This document shows positions 15,980 through 31,528 of a stretch of DNA of 64,000 nucleotides, piece after piece; the first letter of the stretch is position 1, and the number at the start of each line of letters is the position of its first letter. The stretch lies in the NCBI GenBank assembly GCA_041615815.1, contig JBFJCP010000025.1:10109-74108 (forward strand), written 5' to 3'. The stretch comes from Gemmatimonadales bacterium. GTDB taxonomy: Bacteria > Gemmatimonadota > Gemmatimonadetes > Gemmatimonadales > GWC2-71-9. Below the pieces are notes generated by a model. The model had not been told where the DNA came from. It made no database searches and saw only the letters and a list, made by a program, of their open reading frames with translations. Made by a program: the position numbers and the translations under genes.

Positions 15980-17121
15980 CCGCGCTGCTCAGCGGCTGCG
16001 CCCAGGTCCAGGAGCCTCCCGGCGGTCCGCCCGACTTCACCCCTCCCACACTGGTGAGTGTGCGCCCGGACTCGGGGGCAGTGCTCCCGCGATTCAACGA
16101 CGCGGCCGAGTTTCAGTTCGACGAGGTCGTGACCGAACCCACCGGGCAGACCGCCTCCCGCCTGTTCTTGCTCTCCCCCCGCCCGCGGGAGCTGGACGTG
16201 GACTGGAAACGGACGCGGCTTACCGTGAAACCGAGCGGGGGCTGGCGGCAGGGCGTGGTGTATCGATTGACGCTGCTCCCGCAGGTGACGGATCTCAGGA
16301 GCAATCGGCTCGAGACGGGACGCGTGATCGTGTTTTCGATCGGCCGACCCATTCCGGAAACCAGCATTGCAGGACGCGTCGTGGACTGGGAAGCGGGGCG
16401 GACCGCCCGTGCGGCCTTGGTGGAAGCGGTCGCCGTCCCCGATTCGACCGTGTACTTCACTCAAACCGATTCCACCGGGCAGTTCGATCTCACAGCCATC
16501 CCACCCGGGATCTACACACTCTATGGCACGATCGATGGCAACAACAATCAGGTGCGCGATCGGGGTGAGGCGTTCGACTCCATGACCGTAGCCCTCGATT
16601 CGATGCTCGGTCAGGTCTTCTGGGCATTTCGCCAGGACACGCTGGGACCGCAGATCCAGGCCGCCACCAGGGCGGACAGTCAGACCATCGCGATCGAGTT
16701 CACCCAGGCCCTCGCGCCGGGACCGGTGGACACGGCGGCGATCCAGGTCTTCGCTCTCCCGGATAGCAGCCCGGTAGGCGTCCAAACGGTGTGGACCCAG
16801 GCGCAGTACGACTCGGTGCGGGCTGCCGAGCGCGACCGAGCACGCGCGGCCGTGGATTCGGCCCGAGCGGACTCCGCCGCGGCTGATTCCGTGGCCGCGC
16901 CACGGCCGCCGGTGCAAGCTCCTCCGGCGGCCGCCCCGGACACCACACCCGCGGCGCAGCTCGTGGCGCAACGGCCGCCGTTGATCAGCCGGATCTTTCT
17001 CAGGCTCACCGCACCCGTCCGTCCCGGGGACCGGTTCCTGATCACGAGCCGTCTCGCCAACGTCCTGGGCGCGGTGGCCGACTCCCGCTCGGTGCTGGTC
17101 ATTCCGGGAGGCGGCCGATGA
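15925..17121 (+). CDS. Lipoprotein with Ig-like (Big_5-type) domain
   Basis: GTG 15925 follows gaaggag; lipobox LSGC, then CA...PPGGPPD.TPP; beta-rich; overlaps the valS end. Confidence 0.75.
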   Translation: MARAARDAYRQAARAGLLTALLSGCAQVQEPPGGPPDFTPPTLVSVRPDSGAVLPRFNDAAEFQFDEVVTEPTGQTASRLFLLSPRPRELDVDWKRTRLTVKPSGGWRQGVVYRLTLLPQVTDLRSNRLETGRVIVFSIGRPIPETSIAGRVVDWEAGRTARAALVEAVAVPDSTVYFTQTDSTGQFDLTAIPPGIYTLYGTIDGNNNQVRDRGEAFDSMTVALDSMLGQVFWAFRQDTLGPQIQAATRADSQTIAIEFTQALAPGPVDTAAIQVFALPDSSPVGVQTVWTQAQYDSVRAAERDRARAAVDSARADSAAADSVAAPRPPVQAPPAAAPDTTPAAQLVAQRPPLISRIFLRLTAPVRPGDRFLITSRLANVLGAVADSRSVLVIPGGGR

Positions 17122-18464
17122 CCGATCGCCGCCGCGCGCTCCCCGCCGTCAACACCCTGCTGGCCGAGGCGGAACGAGCGGGACTGACCGCGCAGACCCC
17201 GCGGGGCCTGGTGGTGGATGCGATCCGGGAGGTCCTGCAGGAAGCGAGACGCGGTGGCGGGACCCTTTCGCATGAGTCGTGGCTGCCGGCGATCGAGCGT
17301 CGAGTCGTGGCGCGCACTCGGCTGTCCCTGCGTCGCGTCGTCAACGCCACAGGCGTGGTGCTCCATACCAACCTCGGACGCGCTCCGCTGGCGGAGGCGG
17401 CTCAACGCGCTATGGAGGGGGCATTCGGCTACACAACGCTCGAACTGAACCGCGAGACCGGCGAGCGTGGATCACGCCAGGACCATGTGCGCGCCCTACT
17501 GCGAGAGTTGACCGGCGCTGACGACGCATTGGTGGTGGGAAACGCCGCGGCGGCGTTGTTCTTGTTGCTGGCGGCGGTGGCGGCTGGCGGCGAAACGGTG
17601 GTGTCGCGCGGTGAATTGGTCGAGATCGGCGGCGCGTTCCGCATTCCCGAGATTCTCGCAAAGAGCGGTAGCATCCTGGTGGAGGTCGGGACCACGAATC
17701 GCACCCGGCTCCGCGACTACGCCCTCGCGGTGAGTCCGCGCACCCGCCTCTTCCTGAAAGTGCATCGGTCCAACTTCGAGATCACGGGCTTCGTGGCGGA
17801 GACCGCGATCGCAGACCTGGTCGCGCTTGGGCGGGACCGCGCCATTCCGGCCGCCCACGATGTGGGGAGCGGCCTGCTCGTTTCCCTCGAGCGGTTTGGG
17901 CTCTCCGGAGAGCCACTCGTTTCGCAGAGCGTTGCGGCGGGAGCCACGGTCGTCTTTTCGGGAGACAAGCTGCTAGGCGGCCCGCAAGCCGGAATACTCG
18001 TGGGGCCGTCGACCGTCGTTCAACAGGCGGCGCGCCACCCCCTGACCCGAGCGCTTCGGCCTGACAAGACCGTCCTGGCGGCCCTCGAAGCCACCCTCAT
18101 GCTCTACCGCGATCCCGAAGACGCGGTGCGGGCCATCCCGACGCTGGCCATGCTCACCGCCTCACCGGCAAGCCTCAAGCGGCGGGCGCGACGCCTCGCA
18201 CGTCGCATTCCGGGAGCCACGACGATGCCCGGACTGTCGTCGGTGGGAGGTGGGGCATTCCCCGGCGTGGACCTGCCGACGACACTCGTCGGGATCGAGC
18301 CGGCGTCGTGTGACCAATTCCTGCGGCAGCTGCGGGCCAACGATCCGCCGGTGATCGCTCGGACCGCGGAGGGATGCGTGGTGTTTGACGTGCGCACCGT
18401 GGCCGACGCGGAGCTTGCCATCGTGGGGGACGCCGCGCGCGCCATTGTTGCGTCGGGATTGTGA
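17118..18464 (+). CDS. selA: L-seryl-tRNA(Sec) selenium transferase
   Basis: VVNATGVVLHTNLGRAPL, SRGELVEIGG.FR, EVGTTNRT, PLP Lys in FSGDKLLGGPQAG. Confidence 0.95.
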   Translation: MTDRRRALPAVNTLLAEAERAGLTAQTPRGLVVDAIREVLQEARRGGGTLSHESWLPAIERRVVARTRLSLRRVVNATGVVLHTNLGRAPLAEAAQRAMEGAFGYTTLELNRETGERGSRQDHVRALLRELTGADDALVVGNAAAALFLLLAAVAAGGETVVSRGELVEIGGAFRIPEILAKSGSILVEVGTTNRTRLRDYALAVSPRTRLFLKVHRSNFEITGFVAETAIADLVALGRDRAIPAAHDVGSGLLVSLERFGLSGEPLVSQSVAAGATVVFSGDKLLGGPQAGILVGPSTVVQQAARHPLTRALRPDKTVLAALEATLMLYRDPEDAVRAIPTLAMLTASPASLKRRARRLARRIPGATTMPGLSSVGGGAFPGVDLPTTLVGIEPASCDQFLRQLRANDPPVIARTAEGCVVFDVRTVADAELAIVGDAARAIVASGL

Positions 18465-19286: not shown

Positions 19287-20816
<1,530 letters not shown>

Positions 20817-20978
20817 AGAGGCAGGGGTTGGGGATCAGGGACTAGAAATTGGGATCGGTCAGAGCTTGTGTTCAGCACCGGCGGTCCGACCCAACGGCCG
20901 CCGATGGCACGACCTTCGTTGGCGAAGCCCCGCGCGACTCGTCTTTCCCAATCCCTTACCCCGAACCCCTATCTCCCC
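20817..20978. repeat. Heptamer-periodic inverted repeat between convergent genes
   Basis: aggggtt-ggggatc-agggact-agaaatt-gggat faces ttcccaa-tccctta-ccccgaa-cccctat. Confidence 0.65.
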
Positions 20979-23014
20979 ACCTGTGCTCCTACAAACAAGT
21001 TGCGGCCGGGCGCGGGCTCAAAATACCGGCCCCCAAACGCATTGACGACGATGGATCCGGCATACCGCTCGTCAAAGAGGTTGAGCACGCCCAGATACGG
21101 GGCCACACGCCACCCGGCGATTCGGCCATCCCATCCCACTCGGACATCCGCGGTCCACCAAGCGGCGTTCTCCGCAGTATTCTCGTCGTCCACCGCATAA
21201 GCTGCCGTGTGCGTGTAGTCCGTCGCCGCCCAGAGACCCACGGGGGCTGCGTACCTCAGGGACACGTACAAGTGGTGCGGTGGCACGCCCGGAATGTCGT
21301 TGCCATCGAACGTGCCATCTTCAGTCGTGAAGTCGGTGAATTGATACTCTGCGAAGGTGTAGGCACCCACGAGACGCAGGGCACGGTGAGGCCTGAGCGT
21401 GGTTCCGATTTCGACACCCGCGTGTCGGGAGGCGCCCACATTGCGGAAGAACTGCCGCCCCGGCTCGCTCGGCACCTCGAACGGGATGAGCCCGTCTTGG
21501 ACGTCAGCGTAGAACGCAGCCAGGTTGTAGGTCACGATACCGGCCTCACCCCGCACGCCCGCCTCGACGTTGACCGTGCGTTGTGGACCGAGCTGGGGGT
21601 TGAGCCCTCCGCCCCCTTCTGGACGGTTGACGAGCTCGGTGGTCGTGGGTGTCTCGAAAGCGCTCGCCACACCCAGGTAGGGCACGAGCGTTGGATGGAC
21701 ATCGACCGTGATCCCCCCAGACCACGACACCGCATCCATCACCTCGTCACCTGAGGCATCACCGTCGCTGAGGAAGCGGTCGTCGAGGTCAAACGCGATC
21801 CGATCGTACCGGATCCCACTCGTCAGGGTGACGCGATCGCCCAGCGCAATCCGAGCTTGCACGAACGGTCCCAACTCGAACACGCGCTCGAACTGGTTCA
21901 GGGTGACCGCGTCCCGGTCCGGGGTGAAGTTGAGGCGGTCGTCCCGCTGCCATTGGGCATCCACACCGACGGTGAGCGTGTGGGTGTGGCCACCGGCTCG
22001 GAACGGAAGCTGGGCGCTGCCACGAACCCCATACGCCCATCGGTCCAGATCGATGAACGCGAACGAGAGAGGATTCTCGAGGTCCCGTCGGAGACCGTAG
22101 ATGGCAACGTCGACGGCCCCCCCACCCCCCGTCGCGTGGCTCACCGAGACACCGCCGAGGGTCTGTGTGACTGCCTTCCCCGCATCGGCGTTCACGTTCC
22201 GGGGATCGGCGAGCGTGACGGAGGAATCGAATTGGGCAGCGGTCAACGCCCCGGGGCTCTGCGCCGTGGGCATGTCCGTGATGTACGCCAGCGCGGCGAC
22301 GCGAGTGCGTTGCCCCACCGGCTGGAGGACGCGGGCTTGAAAGTGTCGCACGTCGGCCCGGCTGTGCATCCGGTGACCATCCACGGTGGTGCGAGAGACG
22401 GCGGCGTACAGGGCACCGGGCCCCAGCGGCGTCGCAGCCGCGGCAGACCATTTCAACAGATCGAACGCGCCCGCGGTTACGCGAACCGCGGGAGTCACTC
22501 GCCCCGGTATGGCGAGGTCCGACGAAAGACTGATCACGCCACCGGACGCGTTTCCGTGCAGACTGGACGACGGCCCCTTGAGGATCTCGATTTGTCCCAC
22601 TTGCGAGAGGTCGATGTTCGTGAGTTGGCCCTGTCCGTCGGGCAGTGTTTGGGGGATACCGTCGAGCAAGATCTTGATCCCGCGAACGCCGAACGCAGAG
22701 CGGGCGCCGAAACCCCGGATGGACACGCGCTGATCGAGAGCATAGTTGTACCGATTGGCTACGAGGACGCCGGGTACCGTCACTAGTGCTTCGTCCAGGC
22801 CCAACGTCGCACGACCGCGACGCAACTCATCGCCGTCCACCGTGGCCACCGCGTAGGGAACGGTTCGAAGCGGAGCCTCCGAGCGGACGGCGGAAACCGT
22901 GATGGGCCGGAGGGACGCACGCGGGAGCGTATCGCTCGGGATTGAATCGGCCTGAGCACGGACGACGCCAGAAGCGACGACACTGAAGACAACGAGGAAC
23001 ACGATCTCCCGCAT
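20969..23014 (-). CDS. TonB-dependent receptor
   Basis: Signal peptide, TonB-box-like ITVSAVR, plug motifs IRGFG and IEILKGPSSSLHG...GGVI, C-terminal NLFD..Y...PAPGRN. Confidence 0.9.
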   Translation of the reverse strand: MREIVFLVVFSVVASGVVRAQADSIPSDTLPRASLRPITVSAVRSEAPLRTVPYAVATVDGDELRRGRATLGLDEALVTVPGVLVANRYNYALDQRVSIRGFGARSAFGVRGIKILLDGIPQTLPDGQGQLTNIDLSQVGQIEILKGPSSSLHGNASGGVISLSSDLAIPGRVTPAVRVTAGAFDLLKWSAAAATPLGPGALYAAVSRTTVDGHRMHSRADVRHFQARVLQPVGQRTRVAALAYITDMPTAQSPGALTAAQFDSSVTLADPRNVNADAGKAVTQTLGGVSVSHATGGGGAVDVAIYGLRRDLENPLSFAFIDLDRWAYGVRGSAQLPFRAGGHTHTLTVGVDAQWQRDDRLNFTPDRDAVTLNQFERVFELGPFVQARIALGDRVTLTSGIRYDRIAFDLDDRFLSDGDASGDEVMDAVSWSGGITVDVHPTLVPYLGVASAFETPTTTELVNRPEGGGGLNPQLGPQRTVNVEAGVRGEAGIVTYNLAAFYADVQDGLIPFEVPSEPGRQFFRNVGASRHAGVEIGTTLRPHRALRLVGAYTFAEYQFTDFTTEDGTFDGNDIPGVPPHHLYVSLRYAAPVGLWAATDYTHTAAYAVDDENTAENAAWWTADVRVGWDGRIAGWRVAPYLGVLNLFDERYAGSIVVNAFGGRYFEPAPGRNLFVGAQVGR

Positions 23015-23083
23015 GGCCCGATACCTTAACCCGGCCTCATCCCAGCGGCAATCGTTCCCATCCACCCGTCTTGCCATTCGTCG

Positions 23084-23584
23084 CTAACAACTCCCGTGGC
23101 GGTGTTCCACGGGACGGCAATCGAAACCTCCGTTGGCCCAGTGGCCGGCGCCAAGCCGCTCGGCCTCGGACTGCGCATCGCGGAGACGACGCTCGTAGCG
23201 GACGTTGGGTGGGATGATGAAGACCACGGCCCACCCACGACGGACCATGGCTTCGTTGATCATGGTGTTTCCGTCCCACAGATAGGCGAGTGTGCGTCCA
23301 AAATCATCGATACGTTGCTGTGCATACTCCAGTTGCACCGTCTCGCCCGGCAGGAGCATCGCCTCGAGCTCCACCCGAGACCGCTCGCCAAACGGAGCCT
23401 GATCGAGCTCAGGCGTGTCGATGCCGACGAGCCGGATCCGAATACCTTGCGTGCACGTGATGGTGTCGCCGTCCGCAATCCGCTCTACCGTGCACGCGGC
23501 GTCGAACGTGAGCCCCTCTTCACTTGGGCACGCTACCAGCGCCGCAACCAACACGAGCACACCCGCTGTCCTCGCATGCTGCAT
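23084..23584 (-). CDS. Thermonuclease (SNase) family lipoprotein
   Basis: Lipobox LVAC; DGDT, RLVGIDTPE, DDFGRTLAY, INEAMVRRGWA. Confidence 0.88.
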   Translation of the reverse strand: MQHARTAGVLVLVAALVACPSEEGLTFDAACTVERIADGDTITCTQGIRIRLVGIDTPELDQAPFGERSRVELEAMLLPGETVQLEYAQQRIDDFGRTLAYLWDGNTMINEAMVRRGWAVVFIIPPNVRYERRLRDAQSEAERLGAGHWANGGFDCRPVEHRHGSC

Positions 23585-23597
23585 TCTGGAACCTTTC

Positions 23598-24206
23598 TTA
23601 TCCCTCCCCCCAAGGCTCGACGAACTCTTCCACCGGCACGCCGAGCGCGTCCGCGATCCGCGTGATGTAGTTGAAGTAGGCAATCACTTGGGTGGCGTCG
23701 TGGATCGCGACGTCAGTGAACCCGTGGTCGCGGAGGCGCTGGAGATCGTTGGGAGACATCTCTTGCTGCTGGTGCGTCAGCCTCGCCGCGAACTCACACA
23801 ACGCGCGATCCGGGGTCGCCAATTGGGCGGACCGCCAGTCCCGGGCAACGGCGTGGACGAAGGTGTCGGCGTCCGCCTCGGTCTCGAACATCTTCGCGGT
23901 CGCGACCTCGGCCCGGAGGTCGTGGGCATGCGCCTGTGTTCAGTAATGACAGTCGAGTTCCGCAGAAACCACGGTGGCCAAGAGCTCTCGTTGGACCCGG
24001 CTCAGGGGTGACGGTCCGAACATGATGGCGATGTACTGCTCCATGCTCGCTTTCATGACCCGGGGATTGAGACTCATGATCTGGACGATGTTCCATACCC
24101 GCCCGGCCCGGCGCATCGCCTTGTCGAACTCGGCCTTGAGTAGACCCTTGGCCTCGCCGACCGGAACCTGGTCGATCCATGGCTTGGTTTGTTCGCTCCC
24201 AGTCAC
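23598..24206 (-). CDS. AhpD/carboxymuconolactone-decarboxylase-like peroxidase-related selenoprotein (202 aa, Sec89)
   Basis: ORFs 23940..24206 and 23598..23891 share a frame. The junction TGT CAT TAC TGA ACA CAG GCG CAT reads C-H-Y-U-T-Q-A-H, matching AhpD CxxCxxxH. A hairpin follows the TGA and selA is nearby. Confidence 0.88.
23903..23942 (-). promoter_or_regulatory. Sec UGA codon with putative bacterial SECIS element
   Basis: UGA, 17 nt, then CGACCUC-[CGGGCC]-GAGGUCG: a perfect 7-bp stem whose G-containing loop starts 25 nt after UGA. Confidence 0.75.
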
Positions 24207-24967
24207 ACCAGCACTCTCCCGTAGTAGACGCGAGTATCATACTCGATCCGGATCATTCCACGCTCATGATGTTGGTCGAACACCCTGTTCAAATCCTCGA
24301 GCATCGGCTTGCGGTCTTGGTGGTCTGGGCCTGGAACATAGGAACTCGAACAGACTCGCGCCCGCAGGCCGGCCCGATCCAAGACCTGGACGTAGTCGAA
24401 CGAGGTCTCGCCGTATCCGGCGTCACCAAACAGCGTCCGGAGACCCGGAGCGATATCGTAGCGGTGCCGCACCGTCTCGTAGTCCACACTCCACCGCTCG
24501 ATGAAATGCTCGTACGCCTCGAGAAATGCGGTACCGCCGAGCCGACGCTCGTTCCACAAGATGACGACCCACCCCGGCGGCCGGAGGATCCTCGAAAACT
24601 CACGCGCTGTCGCCGGCGCGTCGAACCAGTGGAAGGCCTGGCCAACGACGACCACATCAGCCACGGCTGCCGCAAGCGTGGTAGCTTCCGCGCGGCCGTC
24701 GATGCTGCGGAAGCCGGGGTACCCGCGCAACCTGTCCTCGGCGGTGCGGCGCATGGCGACGTTCGGCTCCACCGCGTACACCGTATTGCCGTGGCGTAAA
24801 AAGAGCTCGCTGAGGATACCGGTTCCCGAACCCACGTCGACAACCACGTTGCATGGTTCAAAGCCCATCTCCTCCGCCATGAGCGTCATGACCTCGGGCG
24901 GATAGGTCGGGCGGGCCAGGGCGTAATCCCGGGCGCGGTCGGTGAAGCGGGCGGTGTCGTCGGGCAT
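24203..24967 (-). CDS. Class I SAM-dependent methyltransferase
   Basis: RF...A..Y...RPTYP, DVGSGTG, GQAFHWFD, LRPPG; stop overlaps the selenoprotein GTG (GTGA). Confidence 0.88.
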   Translation of the reverse strand: MPDDTARFTDRARDYALARPTYPPEVMTLMAEEMGFEPCNVVVDVGSGTGILSELFLRHGNTVYAVEPNVAMRRTAEDRLRGYPGFRSIDGRAEATTLAAAVADVVVVGQAFHWFDAPATAREFSRILRPPGWVVILWNERRLGGTAFLEAYEHFIERWSVDYETVRHRYDIAPGLRTLFGDAGYGETSFDYVQVLDRAGLRARVCSSSYVPGPDHQDRKPMLEDLNRVFDQHHERGMIRIEYDTRVYYGRVLV

Positions 24968-25190
24968 AGGATAACGGGCGAAGGCTGTGCTCCTTATCCG
25001 GCCCACGTGGCGGGCCGGCGCAAGTGACCGGGGTCGGTGTGGTGCCAGCAGCGGCCATGTTTCTCGTGGCAGAGCCGGCGCCTGGGCGTCGTGCGTATGA
25101 AGCCGCTATGTTGTCCCGATCGGTCGCGTAGATCTGACCTCAGGTGGCGAGCGATCGCAGGACCTGATGGTGCAAAGGAGGACACCCAAC

Positions 25191-26327
25191 GTGCACGCAA
25201 GCCCCTTTGGCAAGAGACTGAAGGTCCTGGGACTCTGCAACCAGGTGCGGAAAGAACGGAAAAAGAACGTTCTCGCCCAATGCTCCGACATCCTCCGACT
25301 CAGACTAGGCAAGGGAAAGCTCGGCGCCTATGAATACTACAAGTACAGGCTGTACGACGACGAACTGCATCATCCCGCGAGCAAGCGGACCTTTGCTGGA
25401 TTCCGCAAAGAGCACGCACTCGATGCGCGACTGAACCACCGCTCATGGCATGGCATGACGACGGACAAGCTGATTCAATACTCGATTTTCAAGGGGTTGG
25501 GGATTCCGATCCCCAAGATTTACGCGGTGTACCATCCGAGTCGTCGTTACTTCGGCCAGGCTCCTTCCATCCGTGATCCTGAGGCCCTACGCGAGTTCTT
25601 GCGGCGGGACATCGCCTATCCGTTCTTTTCCAAGCCGGCCCACGGTTCGTTCGGGGACCGCGCCGCCGCCGTGCGCTCGTATCATCAGGCGACGGACCGG
25701 CTCGAGTTGCTTTCGGGCGACGAGATGGCGCTCTCGGACTACGTCGCCGAATGTCACCCGCGCGAAGGCGCCTACCCCTGGCAAAGTGGTTATCTCTTCC
25801 AGGAGTATCTCTCCCCGCACCCGGAGATCCTACCCGTCTGCGGGCCACGCTTGTCCAGCGTGCGCATGATCATCTTGCTGTCTGACGCTGGACCGCGCGT
25901 TTTTCGAGCGATCTGGAAGATTGCTACCGGGAAGAACGTGGTCGATAACTTCCAGCACGGTGCCAAGGGCAATCTCTTGGCAACGCTCGACGCAGAGACC
26001 GGCGCCGTCGGCCGGGTGATCCGGGGCCTCGGTCCCGAACAGGAGGTGGTTCGGGCCAACCCAGATACCGGCAAACCGTTCCAAGGTTTCCGGATCCCAC
26101 AGTGGCCACTCCTCGTCGATATCTGTCTCACGGCGGCCACCAGCTTCCCCGGACTACGGCTGCAGCATTGGGACATCGCCATCAGTGCACGCGGTCCGGT
26201 CGTCTTGGAGGTCAACATCGGAGGAGATCTCGACCTCCCGCAGCTGGCCAGTGGCACCGGATTTCTCGATGCCGAGTTCGAGGCGTTCCTCTCCGACTTA
26301 CAGCGCACTTACCCCACCTCTTACTGA
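25191..26327 (+). CDS. ATP-grasp protein, sugar-transfer-associated (ATPgrasp_ST)-like
   Basis: DK, KP..GS.G, FQEYL..HP, SSVR, VDNF..G, WDIAI...GPVVLEVN; GTG follows aaggagg. Confidence 0.8.
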   Translation: MHASPFGKRLKVLGLCNQVRKERKKNVLAQCSDILRLRLGKGKLGAYEYYKYRLYDDELHHPASKRTFAGFRKEHALDARLNHRSWHGMTTDKLIQYSIFKGLGIPIPKIYAVYHPSRRYFGQAPSIRDPEALREFLRRDIAYPFFSKPAHGSFGDRAAAVRSYHQATDRLELLSGDEMALSDYVAECHPREGAYPWQSGYLFQEYLSPHPEILPVCGPRLSSVRMIILLSDAGPRVFRAIWKIATGKNVVDNFQHGAKGNLLATLDAETGAVGRVIRGLGPEQEVVRANPDTGKPFQGFRIPQWPLLVDICLTAATSFPGLRLQHWDIAISARGPVVLEVNIGGDLDLPQLASGTGFLDAEFEAFLSDLQRTYPTSY

Positions 26328-28428: not shown

Positions 28429-30927
28429 CTACCGCGCTCCCACTCCGGTGATATACCAGCCTTGCGCACCGCGCGCGAGCGTGACGGCAAAGTCGTTCGT
28501 TTGATCCTGCTGTCCGCCGTCACGGAATTCGTACCGCAGCCTCACATTCGCGCGGGCCGAATCGCCGGACGGTTGCAAGTCGAGCACCGTCATGGAGACG
28601 GTCAGCTCTTCCACACTTCCGAAAAACGTGCGGAATCCTTGTTCCTGCTGGCTGGACATGCCGGGAAAGAGGCGCTTCAGGGACGCGAGATCCCGACCCT
28701 GGATTGCCTGGGCGTACCCCTGCAGCACGGTGCGGATTTCCGGCGAGGGGTCGGGTGGCGGCGACGGTCCGGCGTCGCCGACCGCCGCCGGCGCCTCCAC
28801 GGTGATTCGCGCCGAGGCCTCGACGGATCCGCTCCGCGCGCTGATCGTCACCGACCCCGGCGTCACTCCGGTCACGACCCCATTCGACGCGACGCGGGCG
28901 ATGGCCCCGTTGTCGGTGGCCCACGTGACGCCGCGCCCCTGCATAGGGTTGCCACCGGCGTCTCTCGGCGTCGCTCGCAGCTGGACCGTCCCGCCCACCG
29001 GAATAGAGGAACGGGTTGGCGAGACCACCATGGAGGCGACTTCAGCGGGAGCCACGGTCACCGTGGTGGTTCCCGACCGCCCGGCCGCCGTGGCCGAGAT
29101 CCGGGCCGATCCCTCACCCCGGGCAACCACCAGTCCCTGGGCCGTGACCACCGCCACGCCGTTGTCACTGGATTCCCAGGTGACCCCCTGCCGTATCGTA
29201 TTGCCGTTTTGGTCCCGCACGATCGCGGACAGCTGGGCGGTTTCCCCGAGGGCGAGGCTGGCTGATGAGGGGTTGACGCGAACGGATGTCACGCGTGGGC
29301 GCGGCGGTGTGGGCGACGTCGCCTGGGCCTGCCGAGTCCGCACCGTGATGAAGGTGGATGCGGTGATGTCCGCGGTCCGCGCCACGATCTCTGCTTCACC
29401 GGTCGTGATCGCCGACACGAGGCCGCGAGAAGACACGCGAGCTACCGAGGCATCCATGGACTCCCAGGTAACGGTGGCTGACGGCATCTGGGACCCTTGT
29501 GTATCGAGCACGTTGGCGGAGAGCCGAACGGTGTCCCCCACGATGAGCGACGCCGATGCCGGCAGCACTTCCACGGCCGCGACCGTGGGAACCGCAATCG
29601 GTGGCGGCGTCCGAATCGTGTCGGTCGCAGTGGGCGACGCCGGCTCCGCGGGAGCGTCGGCACGCCACGGGGCCCAGAGCACGAGCACCACGGCCGCCGC
29701 GGCCGCTGGGGGAAGGGCCCAAAGAAGCTTGCGGCTGTTCCCCGGTTGGAGTCCCGGAATTGGCGTGACGTCCGCCGGTGGCGTCGCCGACTCCTGCCGC
29801 GCGTCCCGCGCCCGCGTCGCCAACGCGATACTGTCCGACAGGCGATCTCGCGGCACGGGGCTCGGCGGTGTCTGAAACTTGTCGACGAGCCGTTGCGCGT
29901 CCGCGCTCTTGGCCAGGGTCAGGATCTGGGTGCGGACTTTGTCGCTCTCCGCCGGCGGGACCGGGCCGAGGGACGAGACCATTTCCTCCAGGGACTGCCA
30001 CCGGTCCTCCTTACCCTTCGCCATCATTCGCATGACCGCGTTGACCATGCCCGGCGGACATTCCGGCACGGCGGCTGTGACCGGCGGCGGGGGCGTGTTG
30101 CAGTGCTTGTACATGATCGCCATTGCCGACTTGCCTGCGAACGGCTTTTGACCCGTCAACATCTCGTACGCTACGCACCCCAACGAGTACTGGTCTGAGT
30201 GGCCCGAGACCGCCAGGCCGGTGCACTGCTCGGGACTCATATACGCCGGCGTCCCCACCGTGCCGCCGGTCTGGGTCAGGCCTTGAGCCTCTGCCACCTT
30301 GGCAATGCCGAAGTCCGTCACCACCGCCCACCCCTCTTCGTCCAGCATGATGTTCCCTGGCTTGATGTCTCGGTGGACGACGCCATGCCGGTGCGCATAC
30401 CCCAGCGCGTTGCCGACCTGGCCGAGTATGGTGTGGACCATGGGGATGGGAAGCGGACCGATCTCGGCGATGACCGATTCGAGCGTGCGGCCCTTCACGT
30501 ACTTCATCACGAAGAAGAGCAGGTCTTCGCTCTCCTTGACGGCATAAATGGGGATGATGTTGGGATGGCTCAGGGACGCGGCGGTGCGGGCCTCACGTTT
30601 GAACCGCTCAGGAATGCCTTCGCCCATCCACAGCACCGTGGGGGAGATGACCTTGATGGCCACCTTGCGATCCAGAGCCAGATCGTGCGCGAGGTACACC
30701 ACCGCCATGCCGCCCCGCCCCAACTCTCCCAGGATCTCATACTCACCCAGTGTGGCCGAGCGCAGCGTCTCGAGTAGCGCAGCCGAGGTCCGGGTGGCGG
30801 AGACGTCGCCGATCGGAACGCGCGTCGTGGGGTCCGATGCCATACGTCCGGGAAGCTGCGCCCCACAGTACACGCAAAAGGCCGCATCGACCGGGTTGTC
30901 CCGACCGCAGGTGTTACAAGGAGGCAC
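28429..30927 (-). CDS. Membrane Ser/Thr kinase: zinc ribbon + kinase + TM + three Ig-like (Big_2) repeats + NTF2-like C-terminus
   Basis: CxxC-x10-CxxC, GRGGMAVVY, VAIK, HRDIKPGN, DFG, SPE; three V.W.S.(D/N)..VA.V...G.V repeats; GTG start inferred. Confidence 0.88.
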   Translation of the reverse strand: MPPCNTCGRDNPVDAAFCVYCGAQLPGRMASDPTTRVPIGDVSATRTSAALLETLRSATLGEYEILGELGRGGMAVVYLAHDLALDRKVAIKVISPTVLWMGEGIPERFKREARTAASLSHPNIIPIYAVKESEDLLFFVMKYVKGRTLESVIAEIGPLPIPMVHTILGQVGNALGYAHRHGVVHRDIKPGNIMLDEEGWAVVTDFGIAKVAEAQGLTQTGGTVGTPAYMSPEQCTGLAVSGHSDQYSLGCVAYEMLTGQKPFAGKSAMAIMYKHCNTPPPPVTAAVPECPPGMVNAVMRMMAKGKEDRWQSLEEMVSSLGPVPPAESDKVRTQILTLAKSADAQRLVDKFQTPPSPVPRDRLSDSIALATRARDARQESATPPADVTPIPGLQPGNSRKLLWALPPAAAAAVVLVLWAPWRADAPAEPASPTATDTIRTPPPIAVPTVAAVEVLPASASLIVGDTVRLSANVLDTQGSQMPSATVTWESMDASVARVSSRGLVSAITTGEAEIVARTADITASTFITVRTRQAQATSPTPPRPRVTSVRVNPSSASLALGETAQLSAIVRDQNGNTIRQGVTWESSDNGVAVVTAQGLVVARGEGSARISATAAGRSGTTTVTVAPAEVASMVVSPTRSSIPVGGTVQLRATPRDAGGNPMQGRGVTWATDNGAIARVASNGVVTGVTPGSVTISARSGSVEASARITVEAPAAVGDAGPSPPPDPSPEIRTVLQGYAQAIQGRDLASLKRLFPGMSSQQEQGFRTFFGSVEELTVSMTVLDLQPSGDSARANVRLRYEFRDGGQQDQTNDFAVTLARGAQGWYITGVGAR

Positions 30928-30991
30928 GGCGGGTGATCCTCGAGCCGCAGCGGGCGCGGCGACGACGGAGCGTGGGTGACGAGACCATGCC

Positions 30992-31423
30992 CTAGTATTT
31001 GGACTGCATGTAGGTGATGCCCCGAGACACGGTGGCCCGCCACGCGGCTTCGACATCAGATCCGAATTCCGGGTCGTAGACCGCCACCGTCTCCATGAGA
31101 CTGTCCACAAACGCGCGGTATAGCTCCGGCGAGACATCGAGCCCGTTCCGGCTGTGCCGCTCCGCGAGGCGGGTCAGGAGGTTGGGTTCCTCCTTTTCCT
31201 GTCCCGGGAAGATCAGTAGCAGCCCAATGGCATGCCGCAGCAGCTTGTGCTGCCGCTCGAAGTCCGTGTTGGCGAACTTCTCCACGGCCGGCGGGCAGTT
31301 CCGGAAAAAGGTCTGGTAGAAGGTCTCGAAGAAGGCCTCCTGTCCGAGGCAGCGCTCGTAGCTCGCCTTGGCCGACTCCATGGTGGTCCGGCTGATCGCG
31401 GTCTGGGAATGGGGATCATTCAT
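30992..31423 (-). CDS. Single-domain globin
   Basis: FF..FY..F (B10 Tyr), F..TDF.RQ (CD1 Phe, E7 Gln), LAERH (F8 His), V.PELY..F..SL, AAW. Confidence 0.82.
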   Translation of the reverse strand: MNDPHSQTAISRTTMESAKASYERCLGQEAFFETFYQTFFRNCPPAVEKFANTDFERQHKLLRHAIGLLLIFPGQEKEEPNLLTRLAERHSRNGLDVSPELYRAFVDSLMETVAVYDPEFGSDVEAAWRATVSRGITYMQSKY

Positions 31424-31498
31424 GTCGCCAACCTCTAAAATGCAGCACACGGCCCAGGACGCAAACGGATCAAGCCCCGGAAGCCAAATCTCTGATGG

Positions 31499-31528
31499 TT
31501 GACCCAACCGCAAGCGTCTCTTTACGTT
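31499..31528 (+). promoter_or_regulatory. Sigma70-type promoter of tRNA-Ser(UGA)
   Basis: TTGACC-18 nt-TACGTT, 12 nt before the tRNA. Confidence 0.65.

Follow-up and report, generated by a model that had tools for sequence, protein, structure and literature searches.

The window is the whole stretch of DNA that was analysed, 64,000 nucleotides of a Gemmatimonadales contig. An earlier note on this DNA had placed a hidden selenoprotein gene at 23598-24206 and left its strand unstated. The coordinates were right, and the gene lies on the minus strand; translation of the plus-strand frame at these positions gave no protein. The features around it are as follows.

17118..18464, plus strand: selA, selenocysteine (Sec, U) synthase (TIGR00474, 507.5 bits, cut-off 267.9), not in the same unit as the AhpD-like gene
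23084..23584, minus strand: SNase-family nuclease (Pfam SNase), downstream, starting 13 nt after the TAA of the AhpD-like gene
23598..24206, minus strand: predicted AhpD-like selenoprotein coding sequence, 202 amino acids, GTG start, TAA stop
23903..23922, minus strand: putative SECIS hairpin, 7-bp stem and 6-nt loop CGGGCC (23915-23910), overlapping codons H95-A102
23928..23930, minus strand: His93 of the proton relay (His137 position of M. tuberculosis AhpD), downstream of the TGA, 78/78 aligned loci
23942-23940, minus strand: in-frame TGA, probably read as Sec89; TGA in orthologues and the same in sequencing contigs
23949..23951, minus strand: Cys86, first Cys of CxxU (Cys130 position of M. 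tuberculosis AhpD), invariant in 78/78 aligned loci
23985..23987, minus strand: Glu74 of the proton relay (Glu118 position), 78/78 aligned loci
24203..25006, minus strand: SAM-dependent methyltransferase (Pfam Methyltransf_11), upstream, its stop overlapping the AhpD-like start

The open reading frame list cuts the gene at the TGA into pieces of 88 amino acids (23940-24206) and 97 amino acids (23598-23891), as had been reported. When positions 24206-23598 are read with TGA as U, one protein of 202 amino acids followed by TAA is obtained, in which U89 is the single recoded codon. This readthrough contains all of the fragments quoted in the earlier note, RELLATVVSAELDCHY-U-TQAHAHDLRAE, DWR, RALCEFAARLT and AYFNYITRIADALGV. 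We infer that GTG is the start codon; it is preceded by GGAG at 9 nt and shares bases with the stop codon of the gene before it (GTGA), and in orthologues the start is placed about 7 codons further on than the GTG chosen here. Four sequencing runs were compared. Contigs from two of them, X1 and X5, extend across window 23400-24400 and show 0 differences, and none of the four lists a different base at 23940-23942, so that a misassembled TGC or TGT is excluded. The assembly itself may derive from X1 or X5, and conservation of the TGA in relatives is therefore the stronger argument.

The joined protein belongs to the AhpD-like (TIGR01926) family by HMM, active site and fold. It scores 123.7 bits against TIGR01926 (cut-off 81.8) over residues 9-193, and Pfam CMD also matches the joined gene. 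It aligns end to end with the solved AhpD-like proteins 6K40, 2PFX and 3C1L, and U89 falls on the second Cys of their C-x-Y-C-x3-H, which bears out the proposal that the TGA occupies the second Cys of CxxCxxxH. The helix-pair active site E-x11-C-x2-C/U-x3-H is present as E74-x11-C86-H-Y-U89-x3-H93, each of the four residues being found in 78/78 aligned loci. An AlphaFold model from nine orthologues is all-helical (pLDDT 84), and its best structure matches are 2PFX, 3C1L and 6K40 (TM about 0.65). Alignment to homologues revealed that the clade of this protein, recognised by the motif H-D-L-R-x-E-V, carries its own insertion after H93 and the catalytic helix. The protein does not belong to the M. 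tuberculosis type of AhpD, since it scores 15.9 bits against TIGR00777 (cut-off 191.95) and has no ahpC neighbour. Two related models of CxxU AhpD-fold selenoproteins match it far under their cut-offs, NF041238 AhpD_rel_CFYUT with 78.8 bits against 175 (model positions 147-339 of 357 covered) and NF053654, YciW-related (seleno)protein, with 22.2 bits against 310.

The genome (G000, 4.19 Mb, 95.7% complete) possesses the machinery for Sec. In addition to selA, it has selB (362 bits), selD (368 bits, with an in-frame TGA of its own at C27:16688-17620) and tRNA-Sec (71.6 bits, anticodon TCA), so the three genes that the earlier note had wanted confirmed, selB, selC and selD, are all in place. Otherwise TGA is the commonest stop and ends 1141/2125 long codon-biased ORFs, and the tRNA-Sec is the sole tRNA with a UCA anticodon. 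A tRNA-Ser with anticodon TGA (window 31541) was considered as a reader of UGA and rejected, because it reads UCA. Of 61 related genomes, selA was found in 54 and a match to tRNA-Sec in 53. The protein has no match in the two genomes checked that lack selA and selD, G049 and the single-contig G057. In G032 the TGA gene, selB and a Sec-type selD are present, with no match to selA or tRNA-Sec; since the assembly is in 550 contigs and contains selB and selD, we read it as incomplete, and Sec-independent readthrough in this genome was rejected on the same grounds.

The TGA is conserved at this site in 8/8 close orthologues and in 80/80 genome loci, the best 80 of 563 confirmed (78 by script; L096 and L108 read by eye). 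It was also found in 28/28 parsed loci among 29 picked by HMM and in 78/80 metagenome loci, of which one has TAA (L253) and one does not span the site; these sets overlap, and related loci do not count as independent. Across 301 sampled genomes of the phylum, the match contains a single TGA at 63/65 places listed and is stop-free at 0. The closest named orthologues are from Gemmatimonadota, in keeping with a gemmatimonad host, and others are from Chloroflexota, Acidobacteriota and Actinomycetota. From these comparisons, conservation of TGA at this codon is evidently more than chance. The clade is nearly always Sec-coding and has almost no Cys-coding members. One genome (L173, G162) holds a remnant that has lost the N-terminal half and is frameshifted at the Sec site; this remnant and the TAA of L253 are due to decay or sequencing error.

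Database proteins look different at this position. Among the best 120 of 172, the residue is absent in 87, which are fragments, in line with the expectation that annotation pipelines break the gene; it is W in 23, C in 6, G in 2, R in 1 and L in 1. The W and G homologues (P0002-P0039) are full-length and come mostly from contigs of 1-2 kb, and they could mean that UGA is decoded as Trp or Gly under code 4 or 25, a reading considered together with TGA being an assembly error of TGC or TGT. However, in one 90% cluster, members of 81 amino acids end exactly before the W of members of 195 amino acids, which indicates that W is a gene-caller artefact; W or G at the site is by this evidence a mistranslation under codes 4 or 25, as that one cluster demonstrates. 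Moreover, no TGG, TGC or TGT occurs at the site in 80 genome and 80 metagenome loci, the contigs match the window, and TGA usage as a stop and the lone UCA-anticodon tRNA in this genome leave no room for Trp or Gly. Both decoding as Trp or Gly and assembly error are refuted for this genome, and we give them hardly any chance. None of the three outcomes that the earlier note had named as refuting was seen: the sequencing contigs keep TGA, the aligned homologues have TGA or Cys at the site, and the genome has selB and tRNA-Sec.

The six Cys-coding homologues are 38-49% identical to the protein. Four of them (P0018, P0022, P0024 and P0025) nest inside the clade with support 98/89 above, in a tree of 73 rows with a midpoint root, in which the W-bearing neighbours of the Cys members were taken as TGA. 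This suggests a probable reversion from Sec to Cys. Such reversions, with a remnant SECIS, are described for other families (PMC1794560). P0024 and P0025 have Cys at the Sec position and Thr in place of the first Cys, as would be expected if the second site is the one that cannot be lost; Acidimicrobiia are among the members of the P0025 cluster. One row of the tree (L049) is a neighbouring paralogue and not an orthologue: a 4-kb stretch of this Acidobacteriota contig contains two distinct Sec AhpD-like genes.

Just downstream of the UGA lies a hairpin whose loop begins 24 nt after it. The hairpin formed in all five windows folded, has an energy of -10.5 kcal/mol and carries GG at loop positions 2-3. 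It fits the published bSECIS model in loop length (6 nt), spacing and energy; the model asks for a loop of 3-9 nt that has G[G/U] close to its beginning, a spacing of 16-37 nt and at most -7.5 kcal/mol (PMC13188914). The codons within it are unusually fixed. Leu97 is CTC and Glu100 is GAG in 78/78 loci, and Arg98, whose codon supplies the loop's G[G/U], uses no codon but CGG and CGT (78/78), whereas at the other conserved Leu and Arg positions, taken as a control, the commonest codon accounts for 37-55%. These loci had come from a peptide pattern that covered the D-L-R-x-E-V/I motif itself, so the codon count was redone on the loci picked by HMM, with the same outcome (28/28). Asp96 encoded by GAT is paired with Ile101 (ATC/ATT) in 8/10 genome loci and 5/5 HMM-picked loci. 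This combination turns a C-G pair into U-A and thereby restores it, and 7 such double changes were counted at that pair. Over 77 distinct rows, 97% of cells are paired, against 22-47% in slid registers. Three of five covariation measures beat nearly all shuffles and two did not, and double changes occur at only two of the seven pairs. Hairpin stability alone is not significant against shuffles (z +0.34 to -1.07), and 154/3000 random TGAs pass the same hairpin test; the case for the SECIS therefore rests on comparison among orthologues. On that comparison, the putative SECIS is under selection and determines which codons are used for D-L-R-x-E-V/I. The start of the loop is +24 in 186/187 sites of the clade, while in the 20 sites from other subfamilies it is always between +16 and +20 (one of these, L023, is from the unpublished genome G016). 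The same Leu-Arg codons (CTCCG) form the 3' arm in the sister family with H-G-x-x-L-R and the 5' arm and loop in the H-D-L-R-x-E-V clade. The SECIS appears to be shifted about 8 nt downstream relative to sister families, a direction that we infer. Outside the hairpin, the codon for Phe178 (window 23673-23675) is TTC in 78/78 genome loci and 27/28 HMM-picked loci, while Phe195 is TTC in 75%; this fixation could reflect ordinary codon bias or a further constraint at the RNA level.

Gene-calling programs report two separate pieces, and an in-frame ATG lies 17 codons downstream of the TGA. This would be expected if the TGA were a true stop, either in a pseudogene or in a split gene whose halves are made separately, but a restart at M106 would drop His93, and no restart is conserved: the first in-frame start is scattered over codons 1-30 and is missing in 11/78 loci. 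The TAA in L253 and the broken remnant in G162 would also suit a stop; otherwise the stop is TGA and always at the catalytic position, and both halves are conserved (60-78%) across several phyla. Selection on the SECIS argues in the same direction. The true-stop reading is largely refuted, and we regard it as highly improbable. The gene almost certainly encodes one polypeptide with Sec at its active site, and sequence, covariation and machinery together make insertion of Sec at residue 89 very probable.

The neighbourhood of the gene gives little information about its role. selA lies 5.1 kb away, matching the distance of about 5 kb that had been noted, and sits between valS and purN/purH. Among 117 loci, the methyltransferase is beside an orthologue only in G002, and the nuclease only in two genomes of the same genus. 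No neighbourhood is shared beyond the genus in 80 loci or in 117 loci with flanks of about 1.5 to 4 kb, and no neighbour family occurs in more than 7/80 loci. Thus, the proximity of selA is incidental, and we discarded linkage to selA, nuclease or methyltransferase as evidence of function. In the 80 and 117 loci, no peroxiredoxin or reductase gene was found as a conserved neighbour that would point to a partner, and within 20800-25300 no sigma-70 promoter-like site or terminator was found near the gene. Downstream of the nuclease, a TonB-dependent receptor gene (window 20969-23077, minus strand) is most like PqqU (349 bits, cut-off 1200), and such a receptor is kept beside the orthologue in G001. 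Elsewhere in the window, at 28429-31137 and 30992-31513 (minus strand), a Ser/Thr kinase-like ORF with Ig-like repeats (seen by eye) adjoins a single-domain globin (Pfam Globin).

Besides this gene, four further AhpD-like genes have TGA at the CxxU site, which makes five Sec AhpD-like paralogues in the genome. The places related to paralogues are C1:182551, C26 (L136), C2:9355, C2:215260, C28 (L137) and C37:26637-26849. All four further paralogues have a SECIS-like hairpin, three scored in one test and the fourth in an ab initio scan. One AhpD-like paralogue, on C28, codes for Cys, and a CMD match on C37 contains no stops. In a tree that does not include C2:215260, the Sec paralogues fall in distant subfamilies. 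Family scans also point to likely selenoproteins at C26:31428, C3:8229, C23:45837, C55:1025, C13:59753 and C27:16688-17620 (SelD); the families are peroxiredoxin (TxxU), glutaredoxin-like (UxxC), SelW/Rdx (CxxU), OsmC-like, DUF3179 (UxxC) and SelD. The ab initio scan for Sec genes was noisy, giving 86 and then 260 candidates, and its first run missed the AhpD-like gene; 19 regions were given family scans and 9 match a family across the TGA, so this list of selenoproteins is a lower bound. One more candidate, at C12:74176 (L125), has P-T-U-G-G-C (UxxC), a signal-peptide-like start and a hairpin, and has no Pfam or NCBIfam match. At C2:9505-9513 a short paralogue ends in W-Y-G followed by TGA GGG TGA, of which the first TGA is probably the stop. 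The genome also contains Lpd and seven AhpC/TSA-type matches, and the Sec peroxiredoxin and OsmC are candidate partners of the AhpD-like protein.

In M. tuberculosis AhpD, Cys133 is the nucleophile and is activated by His137, a water and Glu118. That P0024 and P0025 have lost their first Cys is consistent with attack of the Cys133 type. The active-site residues of that enzyme are Glu118, Cys130, Cys133 and His137 (PMC3141380), with the same spacing as E74, C86, U89 and H93. The likeness is limited to the helix pair (profile E 0.015), there is no adjacent ahpC here, and His132 is replaced by Tyr, as also in PA0269 (PMC3141380; PMC6300522). PA0269 is described as having weak peroxidase activity only and the substrates of its family as largely unknown (PMC3141380). 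The best sequence and structure matches are D. radiodurans DR1765 (6K40), 2PFX, 3C1L and 2OYO (E 8e-21; TM about 0.65); they keep E-x11-C-x-Y-C-x3-H and differ in having Cys and not Sec, in being about 26-35% identical and in lacking the clade insertion. DR1765 is needed for H2O2 resistance via its CxxC, and AhpD proteins get electrons from lipoyl systems (both PMC8945050). An 'AhpD-like' protein of C. glutamicum, whose motif differs, has its first Cys as the nucleophile (PMC10460364), so the order of attack is not given for every relative.

By analogy with these proteins, the most likely role is that of a selenolate-based peroxide or disulfide reductase, with substrate and donor modelled on the relatives. 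SelB and Sec-tRNA(Sec) would bind the hairpin just downstream of the UGA and place Sec at residue 89, where it would stand in for the second Cys of the AhpD CxxC. The targets of its selenolate would be hydroperoxides or oxidised peroxidases, the latter at their disulfide; Cys86 would resolve the product into a Cys86-Sec89 selenenylsulfide, and a dihydrolipoyl/Lpd or thioredoxin-type donor would re-reduce it. Under selenium shortage the ribosome would release an 88-residue product lacking Sec89 and His93, and no enzyme would be made. We consider this explanation as a whole, a Sec-inserted AhpD-like enzyme acting as such a reductase, to be likely.

Sec might also serve another chemistry. Bmp8 is a tetrabromopyrrole debrominase, a Cys enzyme in a biosynthetic cluster. 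Its structures (6OHI and 6OHJ) match the model (E about 2e-4, TM 0.60), so that the selenolate might act on a haloaromatic, by reductive dehalogenation as in Bmp8 or deiodinase, or on a hypohalous oxidant or a metalloid. That one genome has five Sec paralogues belonging to distant subfamilies hints at a range of substrates, and the missing peroxiredoxin neighbour and the clade's own insertion after H93 are in line with this. Nevertheless, Bmp8 shares the fold at just 15-16% identity and does not appear in the profile search up to E 10, in which DR1765-type proteins reach 1e-32, and halogen or metalloid genes do not recur near orthologues (80 loci). We consider such a role unlikely. A bolder version is that the H-D-L-R-x-E-V clade is a nearly obligate selenoenzyme in which the SECIS moved about 8 nt downstream, freezing the peptide motif, and whose chemistry is now non-peroxide, for example reductive dehalogenation. 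The SECIS shift and the near-obligate use of Sec are seen here, the change of chemistry is speculative, and the combination strikes us as improbable. The peroxide or disulfide reductase remains the preferred reading.

AhpD-like selenoproteins had been predicted in bacteria before, as the earlier note had stated. The AhpD-like family (COG2128, TIGR01926, 'AhpD-like 1') likewise has CxxU and a downstream bSECIS and scores above the cut-off of the same HMM. It was described in 2005 with 27 sequences from Sargasso Sea reads (PMC1088965), ranks fourth among selenoprotein families in GOS with 299 sequences (PMC2398784), appears as TIGR01926/CxxU in a table of a 2026 review (PMC13188914) and is the subject of a page in BSepDB (PMC13326102). 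Because this CxxU family is already catalogued, the gene is an annotation fix and not a discovery. The H-D-L-R-x-E-V clade differs from the family in its insertion after the catalytic helix, in its loop at +24 and not +16 to +20, and in its almost complete lack of Cys members. We found no description of this clade or of Gemmatimonadota selenoproteomes in the literature searched, whose supplements, like BSepDB, may list the gene. The Sec form had been called little studied, and our literature search, with most subscription papers outside its scope, found no biochemical study of a Sec AhpD. The additions made here are smaller ones: a clade that is nearly always Sec-coding, the database splits and false Trp, a SECIS that lies about 8 nt further downstream than that of sister families, and five Sec paralogues. 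What is known about Sec decoding stays unchanged. The analysis corrects the annotation of a widespread gene, which databases store either split in two or with Trp wrongly placed at the catalytic position. Few predicted selenoproteins of bacteria are as common as the AhpD-like ones, and this clade is a clean test case for the biochemistry of the Sec form, in which natural Sec/Cys pairs and a very conserved SECIS make the comparison of Sec with Cys easy.
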